A stretch of DNA of 38,560 bases from a virus (IMGVR_UViG_2529292890_000001:1-38560); one strand, 5' to 3'. Counted from the first letter of the stretch, positions 1-38,560 are shown. Made by a program: numbers and translations. Notes: generated by a model not told the origin, from the letters alone.

Positions 1-26
1 CGACGAGAAATGTCGGCCCGCATTAT

Positions 27-2270
27 TCAGGCACTTTCGCGAATGGGTTCGATTTCATTCAGCGTATCAATTAACGGTTGCGGCTTACCAATAAGATAAC
101 CCTGCATATAATCGATCCCCAAAGAGAGCACCGCCTCGCGGATCTCTTCGTTTTCAACGTACTCTGCCACTACCCGCATTTTCTTCATTCGCGCCAGGTG
201 GCAAATCGACGCCACTATCTGATAATCCAGACTATTTGACACAATATTGCGGATAAAACTGCCGTCAATTTTAAGCAGATCGGCATTCACATTTTTAAGC
301 CGCGCATAGCTGGCGTAGCCGGTGCCGAAATCATCAATCGCAATCTGGCAGCCTAATTCCTGAAGATGCTGCAAGGTGATTTGCGCCTGCTTAACATTGG
401 TCAGAGCATTACTTTCGGTGACTTCAAAAATAAGTTGCCACGCTTCAATCTGATATTTAGCCAGCAGCTGACTGACTTCAACAGGAAAACGAGCCTGACA
501 TACCGAGGTTGGAGACAGATTAATAGCAAAACGGTGAGCGGGCATCTTCGCTCTGTTTTCAGCCATAAATTGCAGCGTATGCTCAATGACCCACATGTCG
601 ATACTCGACGATAAACCAAATTCGTGCGCGACCGGTAAGAAGCTATCGGGGCTGATCAGTTCATCATTCTCACCTTTCATGCGCAGAAGAATTTCATGGT
701 AGACATCACCACGCATACCGGTAATCGGCTGGGCCATCAGGAAAAAATGGTTGTGTTCCAGCGCCCGCTGTAGCCGATTCATCATCGCGACTTTATCTTT
801 CAATTCGCGTTGCAAATACATTGCTCCGCGACGCTGCATATTTTCCGGGGCGTTGGTCACGATAGAAAGTTCGGCCACTGTATTTAGCTCTCCCAGCAGC
901 AGGTAGATATGATTCACTGGCGAGCGCACATAGCAGTAACTGACGCCAATCTGCGGTTGCATCGGCATTCCATCCCAAAAGAAACGAAATTGCTTGAGAT
1001 GGCTATCCAGTGCGGTAATGCGCTCCTGGTGCGATTCTGTATTCAGCCGCAGCGCGAGATCGTTACCCGAAAGCTGATAAACATCTTCACCCGGTTCCAA
1101 CAATGGTGACAGCCAGTGAGAAAGTTTTTGCTTGTATTGAATCCGCAGCATGATGCCATAATTCTTAACCAGCATTTCCATGCCAGGGATGCGTAAATAA
1201 CAAAGCGCAGACCAGGGGGCATCACGTAACGCGCGATTCAGGGCGCGAACATTTGGCAGATGAACCACCGGGTCCACATACGCAAGCCGCTGAATGCGTC
1301 TGACTACCGCTCGCTGACGGGTTGCCAGTACAGCCATATAATTGACAATAAAAGAGAATACCAGATAACTGGAGGAGGTTATGGTGAGCTGCGTGGTATA
1401 GCCAGGATAAATGGGAATGTAATTTTGATAGCTGTGGATGCTGATCATCAACACGACCGCCCAGAGCAATGAAATCAGCTTATAACCATAGCGCATCGCT
1501 CCCCACATCATCAGGGGCAGCAATAATGACAAGGTGTAATTGGTGCTAAAAATCGTGCTTTTTTCATTTAACGGCATGCATAACAGCAATAGTAAAGCAC
1601 CTAATGCCAGTAGCCAGATTGCGAACTCTTTTTTGGTAACTTTGGCATCAACCTGCTGTTTTAATTGCGAATAATAGCTACGTAAATAAAACGGATTTCG
1701 CACCACCCGAATGATGAAGTAGCACAGCGGGACACCAATCAGATTACCCACCAGCAAGGCCTGATAATTGATTAAGGTCCCGAGGTTAAAGGGCATGACG
1801 CCGACCAGATTTTCTCTGCTCGCCAGTAACCCTACAAACGCAGCAAACTGGAAAAGTATCAGAAACAGCGTTGCAGGAAACACAATCTGCCAGAATAGTC
1901 GCTGGGAAATTAAACGGCTATCACCATGTGAAACGTTGTTACGCCGGGGGGTAAAAACCCTGTAACCGCCCCAACAGAGAATGATAATGATAATAAAATT
2001 AGCCGTTAATGAGAGCGTTTCGTAAAAACCCAGCTCTGCATATTTGCGGACAAAAATCCCTAAGGCGATCCCTGGCAATGCCGCCCAGCTGAAAAACATC
2101 ATCATGCTGATCATCAGTGCCAGTGGCAGATAAAAGAGAAAAACTTCACCGGAAGAAATATGCGCGAAAGTATTAATGTGGGCGAAAATGGGCAAGATTA
2201 AAGAAGGCAGGAACAGCGGAAGCCCCCACCATTTATCACGTATTTTTATATAAGTTGCATTCAGTTTCAT
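27..2270 (-). CDS. pdeF: Cyclic di-GMP phosphodiesterase PdeF (YfgF): N-terminal multi-pass membrane (MASE1-like) domain, degenerate GGDEF, C-terminal EAL
   Basis: 747-aa ORF; hydrophobic N-terminal half; C-terminal EAL-type signatures (QPI..., DDFGTGYASYARLK, EYVENEE); length and neighbours match E. coli yfgF-yfgG-yfgH-yfgI. Confidence 0.88.
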   Translation of the reverse strand: MKLNATYIKIRDKWWGLPLFLPSLILPIFAHINTFAHISSGEVFLFYLPLALMISMMMFFSWAALPGIALGIFVRKYAELGFYETLSLTANFIIIIILCWGGYRVFTPRRNNVSHGDSRLISQRLFWQIVFPATLFLILFQFAAFVGLLASRENLVGVMPFNLGTLINYQALLVGNLIGVPLCYFIIRVVRNPFYLRSYYSQLKQQVDAKVTKKEFAIWLLALGALLLLLCMPLNEKSTIFSTNYTLSLLLPLMMWGAMRYGYKLISLLWAVVLMISIHSYQNYIPIYPGYTTQLTITSSSYLVFSFIVNYMAVLATRQRAVVRRIQRLAYVDPVVHLPNVRALNRALRDAPWSALCYLRIPGMEMLVKNYGIMLRIQYKQKLSHWLSPLLEPGEDVYQLSGNDLALRLNTESHQERITALDSHLKQFRFFWDGMPMQPQIGVSYCYVRSPVNHIYLLLGELNTVAELSIVTNAPENMQRRGAMYLQRELKDKVAMMNRLQRALEHNHFFLMAQPITGMRGDVYHEILLRMKGENDELISPDSFLPVAHEFGLSSSIDMWVIEHTLQFMAENRAKMPAHRFAINLSPTSVCQARFPVEVSQLLAKYQIEAWQLIFEVTESNALTNVKQAQITLQHLQELGCQIAIDDFGTGYASYARLKNVNADLLKIDGSFIRNIVSNSLDYQIVASICHLARMKKMRVVAEYVENEEIREAVLSLGIDYMQGYLIGKPQPLIDTLNEIEPIRESA

Positions 2271-2397
2271 AGATGCTCAGCAGAATCCCCCACATCCTGA
2301 AGGAGGTGTATTCAGACAGGCATCCCACCTGACTTCGAATGATGATTATTCATCACTATAGAGAGCAATGATTCTAAGTGTCATATGAAAGTTCCAA

Positions 2398-2411
2398 TTG
2401 ATATATATCAA
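2398..2411. promoter_or_regulatory. FNR/CRP-family box TTGAT-N4-ATCAA in the pdeF upstream region
   Basis: Perfect inverted repeat ttgatatatatcaa about 130 bp upstream of the pdeF start; pdeF is recalled to be anaerobically (FNR) controlled. Confidence 0.5.
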
Positions 2412-2621
2412 ACAAAATAACCCTGATTAATGAATTATTACGTTTATCATGTTAACTCATCATTATTACATCATCATTGTAAATAATTAAATTAACTTTC
2501 ATAACATTAAAATATGTATCAACTGACGCTTTTTTACATAACGAAGAATTGACCATTTTGTCCTGTTGTGCCTTAATGTAAGTACCGTCCACGGCGTGGG
2601 ACATACTTCAAGGAACCTTTT

Positions 2622-2813
2622 GTGAGTCAGGCAACCAGTATGCGAAAACGACACCGATTTAACAGTCGCATGACCCGTATCGTACTGCTCATCAGCTTTA
2701 TCTTCTTCTTTGGCCGTTTTATCTACTCGTCCGTCGGTGCCTGGCAGCACCATCAGAGCAAAAAAGAAGCTCAGCAATCCACACTCTCCGTCGAATCACC
2801 GGTACAACGTTAG
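2622..2813 (+). CDS. yfgG: Small protein YfgG (63 aa)
   Basis: 63-aa ORF in the conserved position between yfgF and yfgH; hydrophobic central segment. Confidence 0.75.
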   Translation: MSQATSMRKRHRFNSRMTRIVLLISFIFFFGRFIYSSVGAWQHHQSKKEAQQSTLSVESPVQR

Positions 2814-3123
2814 CGGTTACCTTCTCCACTCTCACAGAACATAACGGCACCTCGCTGTCGGATGCTTTTGCTCTTTGAGATTATCAAAGCGGCAGATATT
2901 CTTTCATCTTAAATTTTACGTCTTTGTTCTGACTGAAGTTCATCCTGTTCGGCTGCGAAATAAATACATCATTAATACATATGTTGTGATGATGTATTTT
3001 TATAAATTATTTCCCGCATGAATTTTAATAAATTTAATCTATTCCTTTATACGCAATACATTTACTTTCCTCTTTTGATGATCTTAAATGTCTCATTTTT
3101 CGTAATGTGTATAACAAGGAATA

Positions 3124-3642
3124 GTGATGAAATTTAAAAAATGTCTTCTGCCTGTGGCAATGTTAGCGTCATTCACTCTGGCAGGATGCCAGTCAAATGC
3201 TGATGATCATGCCGCCGATGTTTATCAAACCGATCAACTGAATACCAAACAAGAAACTAAAACCGTTAATATTATTTCCATTCTTCCCGCAAAAGTTGCC
3301 GTAGACAACGCCCAAAATAAACGGAACGCACAAGCCTTCGGCGCGCTTATTGGCGCTGTCGCTGGCGGTGTTATCGGCCACAACGTCGGGTCTGGCAGCA
3401 ATTCCGGAACGACGGCAGGTGCAGTTGGCGGCGGAGCTGTAGGCGCGGCAGCGGGTTCGATGGTGAATGATAAAACCTTAGTGGAAGGTGTTTCTTTAAC
3501 ATATAAGGAAGGCACCAAAGTGTATACCTCCACCCAGGTGGGTAAAGAGTGCCAGTTTACGACAGGTTTAGCCGTTGTTATTACCACGACGTATAACGAA
3601 ACGCGTATTCAGCCAAATACCAAATGTCCTGAAAAGAGCTAA
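3124..3642 (+). CDS. yfgH: Outer-membrane lipoprotein YfgH (glycine-zipper)
   Basis: 172-aa ORF; signal peptide with lipobox LAGC; Gly/Ala-rich glycine-zipper segment. Confidence 0.8.
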   Translation: MMKFKKCLLPVAMLASFTLAGCQSNADDHAADVYQTDQLNTKQETKTVNIISILPAKVAVDNAQNKRNAQAFGALIGAVAGGVIGHNVGSGSNSGTTAGAVGGGAVGAAAGSMVNDKTLVEGVSLTYKEGTKVYTSTQVGKECQFTTGLAVVITTTYNETRIQPNTKCPEKS

Positions 3643-3657
3643 TAATCAGGAGGAGTC

Positions 3658-4197
3658 ATGAAGAAAGTTTTTCTTTGCGCCATCTTAGCCTCCTTAAGCT
3701 ATCCGGCTATCGCCTCATCATTGCAGGATCAACTCTCGGCTGTCGCAGAAGCGGAACAGCAAGGTAAAAATGAAGAGCAAAGGCAGCATGACGAATGGGT
3801 CGCGGAGCGCAACAGGGAAATCCAGCAAGAGAAGCAACGTCGCGCAAACGCCCAGGCCGCGGCTAATAAAAGAGCGGCAACGGCAGCAGCGAATAAGAAA
3901 GCTCGTCAGGATAAACTGGACGCCGAAGCCACTGCGGACAAAAAACGCGATCAAAGTTATGAAGATGAGCTACGTAGCTTAGAGATTCAGAAACAAAAAC
4001 TGGCGCTGGCGAAAGAAGAAGCCCGCGTCAAGCGCGAAAACGAATTTATCGATCAGGAACTGAAGCACAAAGCTGCGCAAACCGATGTGGTGCAATCTGA
4101 AGCTGACGCAAACAGAAATATGACTGAAGGCGGTCGCGATCTGATGAAAAGCGTGGGCAAAGCAGAAGAGAACAAATCGGACAGCTGGTTTAATTAA
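3658..4197 (+). CDS. yfgI: Uncharacterised secreted coiled-coil protein YfgI
   Basis: 179-aa ORF with signal peptide and charged K/E/R/A/Q-rich low-complexity body; RBS AGGAGG upstream; conserved position. Confidence 0.8.
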   Translation: MKKVFLCAILASLSYPAIASSLQDQLSAVAEAEQQGKNEEQRQHDEWVAERNREIQQEKQRRANAQAAANKRAATAAANKKARQDKLDAEATADKKRDQSYEDELRSLEIQKQKLALAKEEARVKRENEFIDQELKHKAAQTDVVQSEADANRNMTEGGRDLMKSVGKAEENKSDSWFN

Positions 4198-4235
4198 TCG
4201 ATGTAAGTAACTTCAAGCCTATAATTCTTGAAGAT

Positions 4236-4268
4236 AAAAAACCCTCTGTAGTAACAGAGGGTTTTGTT
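4236..4268. terminator. Bidirectional rho-independent terminator (yfgI / guaA 3' end)
   Basis: A5, stem ccctctgt, loop agta, stem acagaggg, then TTTTGTT; A-tract on one side and T-tract on the other. Confidence 0.7.
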
Positions 4269-4291
4269 CATTCATAGTGCAGGGATCAAAA

Positions 4292-9743: not shown

Positions 9744-9760
9744 ATTACCTTTCGGGTAAT
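9744..9760 (-). promoter_or_regulatory. Dispersed palindrome copy A: ATTACC-TTTCG-GGTAAT
   Basis: 17-bp inverted repeat about 100 bp upstream of the tailspike start; a half-site ATTACC (9694-9699) plus AACCACATATG (9705-9715) lies between. Confidence 0.55.
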
Positions 9761-9798
9761 TTGCAAAACGTGCTGGATAGCAAACAAATTATTTGCTA

Positions 9799-9814
9799 CT
9801 GTATAAATATACAG
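9799..9814. promoter_or_regulatory. LexA (SOS) box CTGT-N8-ACAG
   Basis: 20-mer tactgtataaatatacagtt (9797-9816) matches the LexA consensus taCTGTatatatatACAGta; overlaps a TATAAAT -10-like element about 25 bp upstream of the 9837 ATG. Confidence 0.7.
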
Positions 9815-9836
9815 TTATTGCATGGAGAATATTAAG

Positions 9837-10094
9837 ATGCAGCAGTATCACTATCCACTGGAAGACGGATTTACCGAAAGGATTCACACGCCGGGAGGCG
9901 TCAGGTCACTGGTGGAGGGATCGCACTTGATGAAATTACTCCGGGATCTCGATAAGGATGGATTTAATGTCGATGGCCCACTTGCCGAACTGACTGCACT
10001 GATTAACTACGTCACCAGCTCACAGATGTCTATGCAGGATCTGCAAACACATCTCGACTATTGTGCCGAACAATTACGAAAACAAACCCGGTAA
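9837..10094 (+). CDS. Small SOS-controlled protein, candidate antirepressor (paralog of the C-terminal domain of the BRO-N protein at 11245-11931)
   Basis: 85 aa from the ATG at 9837 (RBS GGAG; the track ORF starts at 9822); about 45 percent identical to the last ~65 residues of the BRO-N protein; LexA box immediately upstream. Confidence 0.6.
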   Translation: MQQYHYPLEDGFTERIHTPGGVRSLVEGSHLMKLLRDLDKDGFNVDGPLAELTALINYVTSSQMSMQDLQTHLDYCAEQLRKQTR

Positions 10095-10864: not shown

Positions 10865-10881
10865 ATTACCTTAAAGGTAAT
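10865..10881 (-). promoter_or_regulatory. Dispersed palindrome copy B: ATTACC-TTAAA-GGTAAT
   Basis: 20 bp upstream of the start of the Zn-ribbon membrane protein gene. Confidence 0.55.
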
Positions 10882-11086: not shown

Positions 11087-11244
11087 ATGCGTATAGCACA
11101 GTCATGCCAGAATTATGGTGGGACGTGCAGGGGCACCGAAAGGTGCGCCGGGTCCTTTTAGCCGGTAGTGCAAACCCTGTACGTCTCACCACCAACGAGA
11201 TTTGCACCTCAGGTGGTGATTAACCATACTAAAAGGTGATTGCC

Positions 11245-11931
11245 ATGACTGCTAACGTAACCCCATCTGTTTTTCATTTTGAATCAGAAGCAACCATTCG
11301 AGCCATTGTTATTGATGGAAATCCTTGGTTTGTTGCCAAAGACGTTATTAAAGCTCTTCAACTGACAAACCCCACCATGTCAATCAAATCTCTTGATGAT
11401 GATGAAAGGGCTAAATTTAACTTAGGTCGTCAAGGCGAAACCAATATTATCAGCGAGTCAGGCCTCTACACACTGATCCTCCGCTGCCGCGATGCGGTGA
11501 CACCAGGCACTATCCCCTACCGCTTTCGTAAATGGGTTACAGGTGAGGTTCTTCCTCAGATCCGCCGCACCGGAAGTTACATTAAAAACTCGCTCCCGCA
11601 GGAAGAACGCATAAAGATGGTTGCCGACCAGGTAGCCAACGCCACAGCATCAGCAGTGATGCAGGCGATGAAGATAGAGAACAAAACCTACAGTGCCCCA
11701 CTGAAGCCCGGCTACCGCAGCCTGATTCACTCGCCGTCTGGTGTTCTCGGCCTGACGGAGAACTCACTGCTGATGAATCTGTTGAACCAGTTACAGGAAG
11801 ACGGGCACGACGTATCGGGCGCGGCGGCGGAGCTGACCACCATGTTCTGCTACATCGTCGGTGTGAGCAAATGCCTGCGTGATATCCAGACTCACGCGGA
11901 GTACATCAACGACAAAGCAGGATTCTTCTGA
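11245..11931 (+). CDS. BRO-N domain protein (antirepressor-like, two-domain)
   Basis: N-terminal FHFESEATIRAIVIDGNPWFVAKDVIKAL is a BRO-N signature; C-terminal domain paralogous to ORF 9837-10094; ATG at 11245 with RBS AAAGGTGA (track ORF uses GTG at 11236). Confidence 0.65.
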   Translation: MTANVTPSVFHFESEATIRAIVIDGNPWFVAKDVIKALQLTNPTMSIKSLDDDERAKFNLGRQGETNIISESGLYTLILRCRDAVTPGTIPYRFRKWVTGEVLPQIRRTGSYIKNSLPQEERIKMVADQVANATASAVMQAMKIENKTYSAPLKPGYRSLIHSPSGVLGLTENSLLMNLLNQLQEDGHDVSGAAAELTTMFCYIVGVSKCLRDIQTHAEYINDKAGFF

Positions 11932-17740: not shown

Positions 17741-20250
17741 TGCGGAATATCTCCGGAGAATCTCTGACGCTTCTGTGTCAGATTAAGAACAACGGGAGAA
17801 CCATCATCTTTCAGCAGATAACCAGTACCAAGTTTAACCAGGTACTGACTATCGCCGTAACTTTGCAAACCATACTGACCAGGCGGTGTTTTTATCCCGG
17901 AGCCGACAACTTGTTCATTCCAAGCCTGATTAACCTGCTTATCGAATTGCTCTGCAGACATTCCCCACGGCAAAAGGACATTCCCCATTCCGTTATAGTC
18001 ATGCACGCCACCTGTAGCTACGTTAACAGCCTGTTTCCAGACATCATTGTCAATTTCGCCTGATACCACGCCTTTTTTCGCCATCACACCAGCGTAATAA
18101 TCCTTTGCGATCTCGTATGCCATTGATGCGCCCTGAGCGTCACCAGCAAATGCATCCTTCACCATGTCAGAAAACTCAAGGCGAAGATCAGCATCTTTAG
18201 GCATCGGAATACCTTTCGCATCATCAGTACCTTTACGAGCCGCCGCGCCAGCAAGAATTGTCTGCGCAGCGGTTTCAGGAGACACGGAAACATCCGGATT
18301 AAACCAGTTTTTTTCTGCCAAAATACCACCAGGCTTATCCATCAGTATCCCGGCAACGGCAGCAGATGGAGCGTTGGCACTGATCTGCTGTAGTGCTGAC
18401 ATATACACCTGCCCACCACCAGTGCTCTGCCTGATGGTATCGAGATATGCTGCCTGTTGGGAAACTGGAGCATCACGAAAGAAAACACCGATCTGATTGG
18501 CCTCGTCTTTGGAAAAGAACGTCAGTGGAGTGCCATATGACTTAGCAAGGTCACTGACCTGAGCGGCACGCAAGGCAACGCTCTGTCCAAAGTTATCCTT
18601 ATTGCTCATGTCGATAGGCTTTGCCTGTCCGGAGGCAAGAGAGAACTGCACAGGATCCGACTGCCGCTGCTTTATCACCTGATTTGCAGCCGAAACAACG
18701 TTGTCATAAAGAGCTGCGCGTGCCGCATACCCCTCCCCTGTTTCACCAGTATCCGGGCGTAATTGCTCAACATATGCTGTAATGCTGCTTGTCGGCATGT
18801 TGCGGAAAGAGCCGATATACTGTCCGGCGATCTGCGTATTCTTAAACTCGGTATATCGCAGGTTTCCTTCTCTGACTCCATAAGCTGCAATAAAATCATC
18901 CTCACCAGGTGGGTTAGGAAATTCAACGCCACGCATATACGCAGCCGTCGCATCGCGAACCCGGCTGTCGAGCATCGTTTTATATTCAGCCTGCTGTTGT
19001 CTGGCTAGTGCATCAGTCTGTCGCAACACGCTGGCCTGATCTGATTCACTTAAAGCATCGAACCAGGCTACACCGGTATAACGTTTATTTTTTGTCGGTA
19101 GCTGAGAAAGCCCCAGCGCAGCACTAACACCTGCAGTTAACTGCTGATCACTGTATGGCTGGCTACCGTTTTCATGATGGATAATGGCTGCACAAAGCGC
19201 CTTCAGGGTATCAGGATTTGATGCATCGAGAGGCTCATCAGCAGAAACGCCAAGTTGTTCGCACACTGCTTTGATATACGACATAGTGTCATTTTTATCA
19301 GTAGGCGGTGCCCAGCGATTAATTATCTCGCTGACGGTATCAATACCCTGCCGCTGATACGACATCAGGTTCCGCCCTAATGCACGAATACCGTGTTCAG
19401 GGGTTTCGAATTTGGCAAAGCGACCATCATCACCAGTCTGCCCAACCCACGGATTAGTTTTGCTGTATTCAAGATTGCCGGGGTTATTGTTGCGTATACC
19501 GCGGGTACGATCGGAAGAGCCACTATCTGCTACAGCACGGCGAGATCCAGCAGCAGTATCGCTTAACTCGCCGTTTTGCTGTCTTACCTGAAGATAGTTT
19601 GCTCCAATAGCATTTTGAGCAGTTGCTTTTGCTGTTGCTTCTTTAAACTCGATTTTCTTGGCCTGGATTTGCTCGTCACTCCAGCCATGTGCAATGCCGT
19701 AATCCTCAATTTGCTGGAAAGTTTGCTTATTAGCCAATACGTATGCGACGTTGTCGCCATACAATGCTGCGGCATTTTTACCATTGTTCAGCAGCGTAGC
19801 CTGAAACTGGCCTTCTTCGTAGGCATTTATTTGCCCTATCTCGTGCCGCCCTGCCTGCGTAGTGAACTGAATGCGCTGCTGCTGCGCCTGCTGCATGAAA
19901 GCATTACGAGCCTGTTCATCCGGCAGCGACATAGCCAGTTGTTCGACCTGAGCATCAAACTGCTGCGTATACTCCTGACCTTTTCCAATAGCATTTTTCC
20001 CTTTCAGGTTAAGCAATCCTGTTTCAGGATTATTCAGCAGATCACTGCTTATCTGACTGAGGTTAAGAGATGCCTCCTGAGCCAGAGCGATATTGGCACG
20101 CTGTTTTGCCTGACCAAAAACATCAATTGCCTCTGTCCCTGCCCGAACAAAAGCATCACCAATACCTGGCTGAGAAAACGTCTGCAAGCCTGCTGACTGA
20201 ACTCCACGGCTCTGAACCTGACGGCCGGATACTGTTGGTACGACTGGCAT
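17737..20250 (-). CDS. Large internal virion protein with a possible cell-wall-hydrolase-like segment
   Basis: 837 aa from the ATG at 20250 (RBS GGAGG; track ORF starts at 20325); internal segment GIRNNNPGNL...RWAPP...; domain assignment is tentative. Confidence 0.45.
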   Translation of the reverse strand: MPVVPTVSGRQVQSRGVQSAGLQTFSQPGIGDAFVRAGTEAIDVFGQAKQRANIALAQEASLNLSQISSDLLNNPETGLLNLKGKNAIGKGQEYTQQFDAQVEQLAMSLPDEQARNAFMQQAQQQRIQFTTQAGRHEIGQINAYEEGQFQATLLNNGKNAAALYGDNVAYVLANKQTFQQIEDYGIAHGWSDEQIQAKKIEFKEATAKATAQNAIGANYLQVRQQNGELSDTAAGSRRAVADSGSSDRTRGIRNNNPGNLEYSKTNPWVGQTGDDGRFAKFETPEHGIRALGRNLMSYQRQGIDTVSEIINRWAPPTDKNDTMSYIKAVCEQLGVSADEPLDASNPDTLKALCAAIIHHENGSQPYSDQQLTAGVSAALGLSQLPTKNKRYTGVAWFDALSESDQASVLRQTDALARQQQAEYKTMLDSRVRDATAAYMRGVEFPNPPGEDDFIAAYGVREGNLRYTEFKNTQIAGQYIGSFRNMPTSSITAYVEQLRPDTGETGEGYAARAALYDNVVSAANQVIKQRQSDPVQFSLASGQAKPIDMSNKDNFGQSVALRAAQVSDLAKSYGTPLTFFSKDEANQIGVFFRDAPVSQQAAYLDTIRQSTGGGQVYMSALQQISANAPSAAVAGILMDKPGGILAEKNWFNPDVSVSPETAAQTILAGAAARKGTDDAKGIPMPKDADLRLEFSDMVKDAFAGDAQGASMAYEIAKDYYAGVMAKKGVVSGEIDNDVWKQAVNVATGGVHDYNGMGNVLLPWGMSAEQFDKQVNQAWNEQVVGSGIKTPPGQYGLQSYGDSQYLVKLGTGYLLKDDGSPVVLNLTQKRQRFSGDIPQ

Positions 20251-30603: not shown

Positions 30604-32079
30604 TTAAGCATAAGGGTCATAATCCGTTATGGCCCTTCCCTGCTGGCTTTGCTGTCCAGGTATATTTATGCGTTTCGAGACCGGGAAAGCAAACGTCAGC
30701 AGTAGCGCATCGCCTTTACCAGGAGAACGCCCAAGTCGCTCTTTGATATCTTCCTTCGGTTCGATAACGATTTTACCGTCCACTCGAACTTTGTACTCTG
30801 CCGCCGACAGGTCGTCTGCTGTTTCCTGGTCATCCAGCATGCCGCCCAGCCTCAGCCATGTCTTGCATGAATTGAACATCTCCCCACGCTTGTTGAGCAT
30901 CTGCGGGTCAGTAGACGCGCCACCGAACGGAACAAGTTGCCATGTACGACCCCAGCCGTCACCGATTGACTTCAAACCGGTTCCGTAACCGAAGTCGATG
31001 AACACCGCGTCAGCCTGATACTGGTCTTCAAAGTCAGCGATACGCTTCGCCATAATCAGATCGTCGGTAGTCTTGTTGCCAGTCCACAGCACCTTACTGT
31101 GTAGCCCCTGCCGCAGGTATATCACAGCGTCATCAACGCCGGAGTATGCCGGGTCAACGCCGATTATCACCGGAGCATGTGCAACCTGCGCAGCGGTTAC
31201 CACCCGTTTCATTGCCTCGTCAGTAAGACCGGTAGGGATAAACTGCAATTCAGATGCATCAGGGAATATGCCACGCACACGGATTTTAACGAAGTCGCTG
31301 TCTTCCCCGTAGTCATCAACCCATTTCTGCAACTGCTGTTTGTTAGTGCCTTCCACCGTCCGGCTGTCAATCTGCGCAGTTTTCCAGCGGTGTTTATATT
31401 TGCGGAAACATTCGCGAAAACGCCCGGTGTTACGTGTAGGGTTTCCGAACGCCACCCAGATAATCTCAGTGTCTTCGTCCGTAAGCGCACCCTCGGCAAC
31501 TTCCCACACCAGATCCGCAATGTTCGACGCTTCATCAAACACCACGATGATGCGTTTGCGCTCGTTGTGTAGTCCGGCGAATGCCTCGGTGTTGTGCTCA
31601 GACCAGGGTATTGCGTCAGCCCGCCACCGCTTGTCGTGCCCTAGGTCATTGCTGTACATCGCGGTAGCGGTACAGGTAAACCAGTCTTTCGTGATAGCAA
31701 GGTTCGACCACTTGATAATTTCCGGCCAGGTCTTCGTTCGTAGCTGGTTGTCGGTGTTGGCGGTCACCACGACCTTACAATCCTCGCAAGTGGACATGCC
31801 CCAGTTGATCAGCATTGAGATGAATGCGGATTTACCAATACCGTGACCAGAAGCGCGTGCCAGCATAAGCGGCTGATAGCGCGTCTCTGGATTCTGCAGG
31901 TGATCACGTATCTCTCGGAACGCATCAGCCTGCCACTGACGTGGGCCGGTGGCATGTGCCAGTTCAGTCCCCTCTTCCCCCCATGGGAACGCATAGAGGG
32001 CATAGCCAAGCGGATCGTGAGTGAACCCTGCAATATCCTCGATTAACTGCTCTTCAGGAGATAACGCTGTATCTGTCAC
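30604..32079 (-). CDS. Terminase large subunit
   Basis: 491 aa; Walker A-like SGHGIGKS; acidic catalytic residues in the N-terminal ATPase and C-terminal nuclease parts; follows TerS with overlap. Confidence 0.85.
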   Translation of the reverse strand: MTDTALSPEEQLIEDIAGFTHDPLGYALYAFPWGEEGTELAHATGPRQWQADAFREIRDHLQNPETRYQPLMLARASGHGIGKSAFISMLINWGMSTCEDCKVVVTANTDNQLRTKTWPEIIKWSNLAITKDWFTCTATAMYSNDLGHDKRWRADAIPWSEHNTEAFAGLHNERKRIIVVFDEASNIADLVWEVAEGALTDEDTEIIWVAFGNPTRNTGRFRECFRKYKHRWKTAQIDSRTVEGTNKQQLQKWVDDYGEDSDFVKIRVRGIFPDASELQFIPTGLTDEAMKRVVTAAQVAHAPVIIGVDPAYSGVDDAVIYLRQGLHSKVLWTGNKTTDDLIMAKRIADFEDQYQADAVFIDFGYGTGLKSIGDGWGRTWQLVPFGGASTDPQMLNKRGEMFNSCKTWLRLGGMLDDQETADDLSAAEYKVRVDGKIVIEPKEDIKERLGRSPGKGDALLLTFAFPVSKRINIPGQQSQQGRAITDYDPYA

Positions 32080-32672
32080 TGATTGCCATCCTGACGTTCT
32101 TTCAGTCTCTTCCTGGCTGCCGCTATGCGATCAGCAATTGTCACATTCACATTAACATCCAGGCGTTCTTTGAATGCGTTGACGTCGACGTGCTTACCAA
32201 TCAGTTCGAGGTTCTTCACCTTGTCAGGCCATTTAATTTTTTTGAGGATTGTCTCTATCGAATCCTCGTTCATGTTCATGATGGTCGATGACAGATCAAA
32301 GCCACTAAGCGTAGTGCGCCAGATTTTCGGCCACTCGCGGATTGGCTTAAGGCTCCCATCGTCGTTGAGGATGTCGATCACGTCCATCTGGTCGATCTCC
32401 ACCAGGCGCATGAGAACGTAATCAGCACTGACGCGCATTCGTTTGTTGCGCTCTTCCATCAGCTCGGCAATCCGTTTTTGAATGCGTTCATCGCGCATCA
32501 TGAGACTGGCTTTAACTGCCGCTGTATTTGGGGAGAATCCTGCGTTAATCGCAGCCTGAGTCTGGTTTTCAGGCGTTTGGATGTATGACTGGCAATAAGC
32601 CTCCTGCATTGCTGTTAGTGGCTTAAATTGCGTTGATTTGCGTTTATAGGTTTTAGGTTCAGCAGGCATCAT
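32076..32672 (-). CDS. Terminase small subunit
   Basis: HTH-like KPLTAMQEAYCQSYIQTPENQTQAAINAGFS; directly upstream of and overlapping TerL; start taken at ATG 32672 (track ORF extends on a TTG to 32750). Confidence 0.7.
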   Translation of the reverse strand: MMPAEPKTYKRKSTQFKPLTAMQEAYCQSYIQTPENQTQAAINAGFSPNTAAVKASLMMRDERIQKRIAELMEERNKRMRVSADYVLMRLVEIDQMDVIDILNDDGSLKPIREWPKIWRTTLSGFDLSSTIMNMNEDSIETILKKIKWPDKVKNLELIGKHVDVNAFKERLDVNVNVTIADRIAAARKRLKERQDGNQ

Positions 32673-32681
32673 AACCACCGT

Positions 32682-32711
32682 GGTAATAGTTACCGTTGTG
32701 GTAATAGTACC
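32682..32711. repeat. Tandem direct repeat GGTAATAGT(T)ACC x2 just upstream of terS
   Basis: ggtaatagttacc (32682-32694) and ggtaatagtacc (32700-32711); each is an everted GGTAA/TTACC palindrome sharing the half-site of the dispersed motif. Confidence 0.5.
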
Positions 32712-32746
32712 ATGCAAAATAAAGCCGCCATAGTTGGCGGCAGTAT

Positions 32747-32980
32747 TCAAAGTCCATCAAATTCATCGTAAAAACTCTCGTCAAGATACCCTTCCCATTT
32801 ACCGCGAATGAAAATTACATCCTCGCCGCAAGGGTGCTGACTGTCGATAACTATATCCCTCCTGGCGCAACCATACTTATGCATGAGAAATTTAACCTCT
32901 TTCGGAAAATTTGCTGAGTTATCTCTCATATCTTCAAGGTCGTAGCGTATTTTTGGCATAACACCTTCGTGACATGTCAC
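32747..32980 (-). CDS. Hypothetical protein
   Basis: 77-aa ORF upstream of terS; no recognisable motif. Confidence 0.35.
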   Translation of the reverse strand: MTCHEGVMPKIRYDLEDMRDNSANFPKEVKFLMHKYGCARRDIVIDSQHPCGEDVIFIRGKWEGYLDESFYDEFDGL

Positions 32981-33318
32981 ACTATTAATTTCGTTTCATG
33001 CCAGCCTTTAGTCACCCAGCATTGCGAGTCACCATTACACGGGCATGAATTAACGGGAACTCTCTCGCCGCACTTACCGCAAAGTTTTCTGCTGATCGAT
33101 TTTATACGCCCGCGCACACGTGCATCATCCTGGCGGATCAGCAGCGCGATGTACTCGGCCATTTCATAGGGATCGTGACCAGGGCGCCGGGCGGCGCAGT
33201 TCCGCGCCAGCATTTCCTGCTCCTGCTTATCCAGCACCAGTTCAATTTTGCGCTCACCGGCGGCGGACTGCCGAGCGCGCTGCGCGGCTTTGCGCTCTGC
33301 TGCTGATTTAGCCATCAA
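32977..33318 (-). CDS. Basic protein with C-terminal Cys-rich zinc-finger-like motif (candidate late-gene regulator)
   Basis: 113 aa; Arg/Lys/Ala-rich N terminus and C-terminal CGKCGERVPVNSCPCNGDSQC; lies where lambdoid phages place Q. Confidence 0.4.
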   Translation of the reverse strand: MMAKSAAERKAAQRARQSAAGERKIELVLDKQEQEMLARNCAARRPGHDPYEMAEYIALLIRQDDARVRGRIKSISRKLCGKCGERVPVNSCPCNGDSQCWVTKGWHETKLIV

Positions 33319-34927: not shown

Positions 34928-35564
34928 TGTTTACAGCCTGACAAGCCTCTTTGAGCACCCAGTCAACAGCGTCTTTCCATGCTCCGGTTTCGACTGGCGG
35001 ATTTTCACGCTTAACCTGTTCATAGAAGCGCACTGCTTTAACCAGTCCTTCCGGTACTACTGGCGATGGTTGTTTAGCTTCTAAATCAGCAATTCTGTCA
35101 ACCACGACATCTACGGCATCTGAAAAGCCGAACCAGTTACTCCACTCCGGCCTATCCCCGGTTGCTGCAAAGTACATATCAGCTAAAGCAGACTCAGCAT
35201 GGTCACGCTCATCGATGAGTTGCTCTTCGCTTTTCTCCAGTTCAGCAATACGCTTACTCCCATCCGAGATAACACCTTCGTAATACTCACGCTGCTCGTT
35301 GAGTTTTGATTTTGTCTCCTCAAGCTCAACTCTCAGCTTCCCTACCGTTAGCGCAATATCCTCGTTCTCCTGGTCGCGGCGTTTGATGTATTGCTGGTTT
35401 CTTTCCAGTTCATCCAGCAGTGCCAGCGCGATATCTGGCGAAAAGTGCTTCATAAAATCGTTAAGCGCATTAATTCGCTGATCGAAGGGCATTACAGGTG
35501 CTTCACCAGCAATTTTTGTTTTTTCAGCGATTTCACGAAGCTTTTGATAATCAATCTTGCTCAC
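34908..35564 (-). CDS. Ead/Ea22-like coiled-coil protein
   Basis: 218 aa; coiled-coil central region (…KLRVELEETKSKLNEQ…IAELEKSEEQL…) typical of Ea22-like prophage proteins. Confidence 0.4.
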   Translation of the reverse strand: MSKIDYQKLREIAEKTKIAGEAPVMPFDQRINALNDFMKHFSPDIALALLDELERNQQYIKRRDQENEDIALTVGKLRVELEETKSKLNEQREYYEGVISDGSKRIAELEKSEEQLIDERDHAESALADMYFAATGDRPEWSNWFGFSDAVDVVVDRIADLEAKQPSPVVPEGLVKAVRFYEQVKRENPPVETGAWKDAVDWVLKEACQAVNIGIKGE

Positions 35565-36490: not shown

Positions 36491-36507
36491 TTTACCCCTT
36501 AGGTAAT
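36491..36507 (-). promoter_or_regulatory. Dispersed palindrome copy D: TTTACC-CCTTA-GGTAAT
   Basis: Abuts the DUF1064 start codon; followed by ACCACATAAG (36512-36521). Confidence 0.5.
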
Positions 36508-36552: not shown

Positions 36553-36569
36553 ATTACCTCTAAGGTAAT
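36553..36569 (-). promoter_or_regulatory. Dispersed palindrome copy E: ATTACC-TCTAA-GGTAAT
   Basis: Between the P-like stop and the DUF1064 start, 46 bp from copy D. Confidence 0.55.
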
Positions 36570-38491: not shown

Positions 38492-38508
38492 ATTACCTTT
38501 GAGGTACG
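38492..38508 (-). promoter_or_regulatory. Dispersed palindrome copy F: ATTACC-TTTGA-GGTACG
   Basis: Upstream of the small Zn-ribbon gene and O/P replication genes. Confidence 0.5.
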
Positions 38509-38529
38509 AATAGATATGAAAAGAAACCC

Positions 38530-38560
<31 letters not shown>

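Follow-up and report, generated by a model that had tools for sequence, protein, structure and literature searches.

What purpose do the repeated GGTAAT half-sites serve in the short gap upstream of terS in the viral DNA analysed here, a stretch of 38,560 nucleotides (hereafter the window)? The initial annotation had described them as a pair of tandem everted repeats that reuse the half-site of a dispersed palindrome in the opposite arrangement. Several functions had been offered for them: recognition by a regulator, recognition by TerS as a pac-like site, or control of packaging-gene expression.

Identity of the window and gene context

Sequence matches to phiV10, epsilon15, SPC32H, TL-2011b, ZX5 and others identified the window as a phiV10/epsilon15-like prophage contig of the genus Uetakevirus, a group of temperate podoviruses of E. 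coli and Salmonella. By comparison with phiV10, the phage part extends from ~4290, in the attachment-site region, to ~38524. In phiV10 coordinates the latter position is ~33095, and the repressor gene rep lies roughly 0.4 kb further on. Because the contig stops there, rep is absent from the window, and a tblastn search of the window with three Rep proteins returned no Rep homologue; the gene would sit about 0.4-1 kb past the window end. Positions 38526-38560 consist of CCCCC and a run of 29 G in place of the ordinary terminator hairpin of phiV10, and look like a poly-G sequencing or assembly artefact at the contig end. At the opposite end, positions 1-4290 are unlike phiV10 beyond the attachment-site region and match the right end (41-44.8 kb) of the TL-2011b record. 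This segment encodes a 747-aa ORF (27-2270) and two ORFs of ~175 aa, and is probably chromosomal flank included in the prophage-derived TL-2011b record.

The minus strand carries all genes around the terS leader:

30604-32079, minus strand: terL, downstream of terS
32076-32669, minus strand: terS, 197 aa, Terminase_2 (Pfam PF03592, E = 1.3e-29)
32747-32980, minus strand: 77-aa ORF of unknown function (phrog_1541), between the 113-aa regulator gene and the terminator
32977-33318, minus strand: 113-aa 'transcriptional regulator' (phrog_536), last gene of the early-right operon, before the late genes

The 77-aa ORF is present in phage PH444 and deleted in phiV10, TL-2011b and typing phages 9 and 10, where its last codons (...DEFDGF and the stop) are the sole remnant.

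Organization of the terS leader

Both sequences reported initially were found in place (GGTAATAGTTACC at 32682-32694 and GGTAATAGTACC at 32700-32711). As had been stated, they lie in the gap before terS, which is bounded by the stop of the 77-aa ORF (32747) and by the first ATG of terS (32672-32670, minus strand). The following elements were recognized in this gap:

32716-32741, minus strand: Rho-independent terminator from a terminator scan, GCCGCC-aactat-GGCGGC (32741-32724) followed by TTTATTTT (32723-32716)
32704-32712, minus strand: candidate extended -10, TGgTACTAT, sharing its final two bases with the beginning of operator site 1
32689-32705: operator site 1, ATTACC-acaac-GGTAAc on the minus strand, gTTACC-gttgt-GGTAAT on the plus strand
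32671-32687: operator-like site 2, ATTACC-acggt-GGTtAT on the minus strand, overlapping the SD-like GGTGGT and the first ATG
32674-32679, minus strand: SD-like GGTGGT for terS, nearly invariant in an alignment of 12 sequences and 4-5 nt before the annotated ATG

On the minus strand the leader thus runs from the terminator through gca, TGgTACT, site 1, a single t, site 2 and a single g to the ATG. The terminator, missing from the initial annotation, takes up about half of the terS gap. It is a GC-rich hairpin followed by a T-run, and the hairpin alone is predicted at -16.2 kcal/mol (z = -5.2). It is conserved in most relatives, bears a terminator annotation in the records of epsilon15 and phiV10, and ends the rightward early operon.

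The true start of terS is probably the second ATG (32669-32667), since relatives are annotated from there and one natural IMG/VR variant has ACG in place of the first ATG. The RefSeq record of phiV10 (NC_007804.2, 41..715) instead starts terS from an upstream TTG and gives a protein of 224 aa. The corresponding long ORF in the window, from a TTG at 32750, would translate the terminator and both operators (…TITTTVTITTVV…), and other records use the second ATG; the long phiV10 form is probably a mis-annotation.

A search for ATTACC-N5-GGTAAT with at most two mismatches returned 12 matches in the window against 0.99 expected. Two of them lie in the terS gap, at 32671-32687 and 32689-32705, with one mismatch each. 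A repeat search returned a single exact direct repeat of 11 nt, GTGGTAATAGT, whose copies (32680-32690 and 32698-32708) are offset by 18 bp. The description as everted repeats is therefore literally true of the half-sites, but the recurring unit is the inverted palindrome TTACC-N5-GGTAA, present here twice with one mismatch per copy. The first everted repeat (32682-32694) was rejected as a unit of its own; it spans the junction where site 2 meets site 1. In the second (32700-32711), the left half of site 1 is joined to GGTACT, which is no conserved half-site: at this place (32711-32706, minus strand) relatives read GTTACT, GATACT, GATAGT or GTTAGT, and GGTACT was dismissed as a third half-site. 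As its GG is not conserved while TG-N-TA-N-TAT is, it is better read as part of a -10 element.

The proposal of a distinct everted arrangement was not supported by a comparison of five complete genomes. Each of these has 8-11 occurrences of the core half-sites in the form TTACC-N5-GGTAA; among the other TTACC/GGTAA spacings from 0 to 14 bp, none was found except one N11 pair each in epsilon15 and SPC32H. Everted half-sites occur in the same genomes as singletons only, at 2, 3, 6 or 13 bp. The junction in the terS leader also varies among relatives, in which the tandem sites have a pitch of 17, 18, 19 or 20 bp and hence an everted junction of 0, 1, 2 or 3 bp.

The GGTAAT hexamer as such occurs 38 times in the whole window (14.1 +/- 3.6 expected). 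About 14 copies belong to operator-like sites. The other ~24 still exceed expectation somewhat and fall mainly on the minus (coding) strand, which may reflect a codon or dipeptide effect.

Strength and conservation of the two sites

For a position weight matrix, 33 distinct sites were used, all of them from the flanks of rep in relatives. Conservation per position amounts to 89-98% in its TTACC and GGTAA cores and to only 65% at the outer A/T; its spacer is rich in A/T and otherwise free. With the immunity-region matrix, site 1 scored 20.4 bits, the fifth best site in the window, where 0.005 are expected per 38.5 kb; its single mismatch falls on the least constrained, outer position. Site 2 reached only 9.9 bits (0.54 expected per window), as its mismatch affects a core base that is highly conserved. 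Only its placement, exactly one operator length from site 1, makes it noteworthy. The sequence suggests a weak auxiliary site 18 bp from site 1, which is not significant genome-wide. With a pitch of 18 bp, sites 1 and 2 do not share one face of the helix, as cooperatively bound sites usually do.

Site 1 was present in all relatives examined, 36-38 bp before the terS ATG and with 17-26 bits. Across 12 distinct leaders the TATTACC block is invariant and the right core reads GGTAA in all but an Erwinia prophage (AGTAA); the outer base is T or C, and the spacers vary freely (acaac, acaat, aaaac, ataac, aaaat, tgcat, ttcat, taaaa). Site 2 scored 3.9-15.2 bits in relatives; in three of these the pitch is 19 or 20 bp, and the Klebsiella phage ST512-KPC3phi13.3 lacks the site.

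The same pattern appears among close relatives. In 79 IMG/VR loci with TerS at least 99% identical, which present 10 leader variants, the half-sites of site 1 are unchanged. Changes affect the N of TGN, with G replaced by T or A (9 loci), the hexamer TACTAT, which becomes TATTAT (5 loci), the base between the two sites (10), the spacer of site 2 (1), its right half (1) and the first ATG, which becomes ACG (1). Two further changes touch the terminator surroundings, namely the G of TTTTGCA after the T-run (1) and the base before the stem (2).

Site 1 is therefore a copy of the dispersed motif, held at a conserved position and with the pattern of conservation expected of a protein-binding site. 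A chance similarity or a non-functional relic would be compatible with site 2 taken alone, which is no better than the best random match in 38 kb. For site 1, however, only 0.005 matches are expected, and its position and half-sites are conserved across genera while spacer and flanks diverge. We regard the chance explanation as negligible overall and, for site 1, as effectively refuted.

Dispersed operators and the pac hypothesis

Scanning the window yielded ~10 high-scoring copies of the palindrome, a number similar to that in relatives. Besides the terS leader, operators were located at the following positions (symmetric sites, given without strand):

9744-9760: perfect operator between the tailspike gene and ant, 24.5 bits, ortholog of the annotated epsilon15 repressor site 19895-19911
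10865-10881: perfect operator in the moron/Bro-N region, 25.4 bits
10958-10974: operator with one mismatch in the moron/Bro-N region, 18.2 bits
12003-12019: further operator near the Bro-N region, 17.6 bits
29526-29542: operator before the head-gene operon, 21.3 bits, orthologous to the annotated repressor site 2931-2947 of epsilon15
36491-36507 and 36553-36569: operator pair, 62 bp apart, upstream of a DUF1064 gene (matrix and palindrome search)
38492-38508: operator just after the terminator position near the contig end, 17.3 bits, corresponding to phiV10 33111-33127

In a sigma-70 scan, the operator at 36553 fell in the spacer of a promoter-like site. Clusters of the palindrome flank rep on either side in epsilon15, SPC32H, phiV10, TL-2011b-type loci and six distant prophages (from Pseudocitrobacter, two Citrobacter species, 'Ca. 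Erwinia dacicola', Klebsiella and Scandinavium). Further copies stand ahead of terS, of the head operon, of the ant/tailspike region and of an internal early operon in epsilon15, SPC32H, phiV10 and the six prophages.

The rightward region of phiV10 shows a layout of terminator followed by operator three times, with terminators at 33078-33100, 35038-35057 and 39104 and following sites at 33111, 35069/35131 and 86/104. This threefold recurrence points to transcription units that are repressed separately. An operator pitch of 61-62 bp, about six helical turns, recurs in every relative before the gene at the DUF1064/RuvC position (phiV10 35069/35131 and 31952/32014, epsilon15 35906/35968, loci L016-L021), and some relatives have such a pair to one side of rep as well. 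These pairs could form short DNA loops held by a Rep tetramer.

This distribution bears directly on the suggestion that the repeats form a pac site, at which the small terminase would bind repeated half-sites to start headful packaging. A position just upstream of terS is typical of pac in some phages, as for pacL of SPP1, and the terS leader has this location. The terminase is moreover of the headful type according to record notes, with a TerL similar to Sf6 gp2 and P1 PacB. We know of no mapped pac site in the phiV10/epsilon15 group, and a literature search on packaging in this group found nothing useful. The pac sites of P22, Sf6, SPP1 and P1 lie in or beside terS and may contain short repeats. 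A headful pac is, however, unique per genome, whereas the motif studied here is found at ~10 intergenic places per genome, densest around rep on both sides. Its dispersal and its link with the immunity region make a role as pac or TerS site less likely. In addition, the conserved unit is a spaced palindrome with freely varying spacer, as is typical of dimeric HTH proteins, and neither site 2 nor the spacing of the junction is conserved. Taken together, a pac function of these repeats appears very improbable.

Probable identity of the binding protein

The alternative of a regulator site is supported by the epsilon15 record (NC_004775.2/AY150271.2), which carries seven features of the type 'protein_bind: repressor, lysogeny', all of them predictions and all perfect copies of the palindrome. 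One of these (12..27) lies directly upstream of terS and aligns column for column with site 1. It belongs to a phage of the same genus, has the same 17-bp ATTACC-N5-GGTAAT, stands at -36 from the terS ATG and follows the same terminator, and site 1 of the window is its direct ortholog with one outer mismatch (GGTAAc). The record annotates perfect copies only; the weak second site (29-45) and the overlap with an extended -10 are unannotated. Consequently, the terS site was already known and is not a new element. A text search of the literature found nothing specific on the motif or on the operators of epsilon15/Uetakevirus. The initial option of a regulator site thus takes a concrete form, as two tandem copies of the dispersed operator whose position is conserved in all relatives. 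The option of a control site for packaging-gene expression is likewise supported by operators at a conserved position before terS, with an epsilon15 ortholog that is a predicted repressor site.

The preferred candidate for the binding protein is Rep, an N-terminal HTH protein. SPC32H-type Rep, the repressor of these phages, is represented by the crystal structures 5D50 and 5D4Z. According to a later summary of the work (PMC9638917), SPC32H Rep binds palindromic DNA as a tetramer in which DNA-binding domains of different dimers pair up, and a single tetramer is enough for repression. The tetrameric antirepressor Ant is reported to dismantle the Rep tetramer (PMC9638917, PMC9986798). In phage ZX5, whose leader is 98% identical to that of the window, overexpression of the repressor lowers holin and endolysin mRNA by >99.9% (PMC9782041).

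The Rep proteins of epsilon15, SPC32H, phiV10 and the six distant prophages diverge to 41-46% identity and retain the helix segment NLVNRW. Between the phiV10-type Rep and SPC32H Rep, identity is 42% over the full length and NLVNRW is identical. All 51 IMG/VR loci with a detected Rep homolog carry the phiV10-type Rep (98-100% identity). No relative with a different repressor was found among the six distant prophages, TL-2011b and the 51 IMG/VR loci, which share the same Rep family and the same operator. A further 29 IMG/VR loci gave no Rep match, and four of these have 8-9 kb of upstream sequence. Three mosaics (L038, L063 and L099) have the terS leader and the head-operon operator as in the window. 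Upstream they carry a lambdoid-type replication/nin region (DnaC-like, DUF1627, QueH, DUF968-RusA, IS element), and neither rep nor further operators were found within their flank of 8-9 kb.

The antirepressor side of the switch is present in the window itself:

9797-9816, plus strand: LexA box TACTGTATAAATATACAGTT, with 2 mismatches to the consensus and 0 expected by chance
9837-10094, plus strand: ant, small antirepressor gene, its product 88% identical to SPC32H Ant (annotated ant in the SPC32H record)

The LexA box lies ~20 nt upstream of ant, which probably starts at the second ATG, at 9837. A Bro-N domain protein is encoded further along (11236-11931, plus strand) in a variable moron region bracketed by the operators at 10865, 10958 and 12003. 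Its C-terminal part (11683-11904) is 40% identical to the small Ant, and it may be a second antirepressor-like gene.

Another regulator could be the main binder, either a Cro-like product encoded beside rep or the 113-aa regulator (32977-33318) acting as activator of the late genes. The 113-aa product belongs to phrog_536, 'transcriptional regulator', its gene occupies the position of a late regulator, and copies of the palindrome precede every late operon. Cro-type proteins usually share their operators with the repressor; a Cro at these sites would, however, add to the explanation by Rep and not replace it. Against a binder other than Rep, the copies are densest on both sides of rep, like a classical OL/OR, and the annotators of epsilon15 assigned the sites to the repressor. 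A position that reaches from the -10 into the transcribed leader furthermore suits repression and not activation. We consider a different main binder unlikely. Binding of Rep at site 1 is very likely, and co-occupation of site 2 by the same Rep tetramer is plausible.

Candidate promoter and fold of the leader transcript

Given that a strong terminator precedes terS, the gene needs either a promoter of its own or antitermination. A canonical -35/-10 promoter was rejected, as a sigma-70 scan of the terS leader detected no -35/-10 pair. The candidate extended -10 has TG one base upstream of the hexamer, A at position 2 and T at position 6. TG-N-TA-[C/G]-TAT is kept in 11 of the 12 distinct leaders, the exception being phiv142-3 (TGgTGCTAT), with G instead of A as the key second base of its -10. 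The element is kept even in BUCT554, Erwinia and Pseudocitrobacter, where the upstream sequence is unrelated and lacks the terminator, and the variants in the population hit the free N of the extended -10 or give TATTAT, closer to the consensus. The odds that the extended -10 is the promoter element of terS-terL are roughly even. Transcription from it would start near 32696-32699. Site 1 would then extend from the last bases of the -10 to about +9, with site 2 occupying about +10 to +27, a geometry suited to repression.

The leader could also act at the level of RNA, with a hairpin that hides the SD and AUG of terS in read-through transcripts and leaves transcripts from the local promoter open. 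A leader transcript from 32715 is predicted to form a hairpin of -20.7 kcal/mol (z = -3.5) that covers GGUGGU and both AUGs, while a transcript from near 32698 lacks this hairpin (-9.3 kcal/mol, z = -0.95). Such folding potential follows, however, from the tandem palindromes and comes automatically with any such pair. For 12 relatives, alifold gave a weak consensus structure (-8.06 kcal/mol, with a covariation term of -0.46 and only one compensatory pair), and its paired columns are the invariant half-sites. Control at the RNA level is improbable. A structured RNA leader or riboswitch was discarded as well, with no Rfam match to the terS leader at E <= 1 and essentially no covariation.

A proposed model for repression of the packaging genes

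In our judgement there is a high probability that the terS leader carries two tandem operators for a Rep of the SPC32H/epsilon15 type, which would silence the packaging genes in the lysogen. The operators overlap the only plausible promoter element of terS-terL and would stretch from the -10 to the ribosome-binding site. In the lysogen, we infer that one Rep tetramer, with its two pairs of DNA-binding domains, would occupy both palindromes; the bound Rep would exclude RNA polymerase from the presumed extended -10 promoter and block read-through, and terS-terL would stay silent. Upon DNA damage, cleavage of LexA would allow Ant to be made from the LexA-controlled ant gene. Ant would then dismantle the Rep tetramer and free the terS operator together with about 10 others genome-wide.

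A wider scheme may be drawn from the same features, although we hold it to be rather doubtful. Rep would directly gate every transcription unit, the packaging operon included, by means of terminator-operator-promoter modules and without a cascade of late activators; a single tetramer would sit on the two nearly abutting terS palindromes (17-20 bp pitch), and read-through mRNA would fold over the terS ribosome-binding site. If this were true, the packaging genes would be silenced both transcriptionally and translationally unless transcripts start at the derepressed local promoter.

Comparison with known systems

A close parallel is the Rep/Ant lytic switch of SPC32H (Kim and Ryu 2013; Kim et al. 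2016). The window shares its Ant behind a LexA box, and SPC32H has the same set of palindromes, with a perfect copy upstream of terS. Unlike SPC32H, relatives of the window with the same terS carry the phiV10 subtype of Rep and not the crystallised protein.

Adjacent strong and weak palindromes that overlap a promoter also recall OR1-OR2-OR3 of lambda with its cooperative CI, and as in lambda an oligomeric repressor could fill the weak site via the strong one. Yet the pitch is 17-20 bp here, so that the sites almost abut, and 23-24 bp in lambda. A preformed tetramer is inactivated by an antirepressor instead of RecA-stimulated cleavage. Operators are found here in every transcription unit, late and packaging genes included, whereas those of lambda are confined to the immunity region.

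Repressor sites dispersed over the genome, late regions included, are likewise found in the gp71 stoperators of mycobacteriophage L5. The L5 stoperators are asymmetric 13-mers that depend on orientation and lie inside transcribed DNA. The sites studied here are, in contrast, symmetric 17-mers, intergenic and proximal to promoters.

Significance

For the terS leader, the outcome is mostly a correction, in which the 'everted repeat' becomes the seam between two copies of a known operator. It is accompanied by several refinements, namely an operator core TTACC-N5-GGTAA with loose outer bases, a weak second site, a candidate extended -10 and a terS that probably starts at the second ATG. The resulting map of promoters and operators may be of use for engineering, phiV10 being a reporter phage, or for studies of the geometry of the Rep tetramer. 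For phiV10/epsilon15-like prophages, often found in pathogenic E. coli and Salmonella, it indicates repressor sites before each operon, the packaging operon included.
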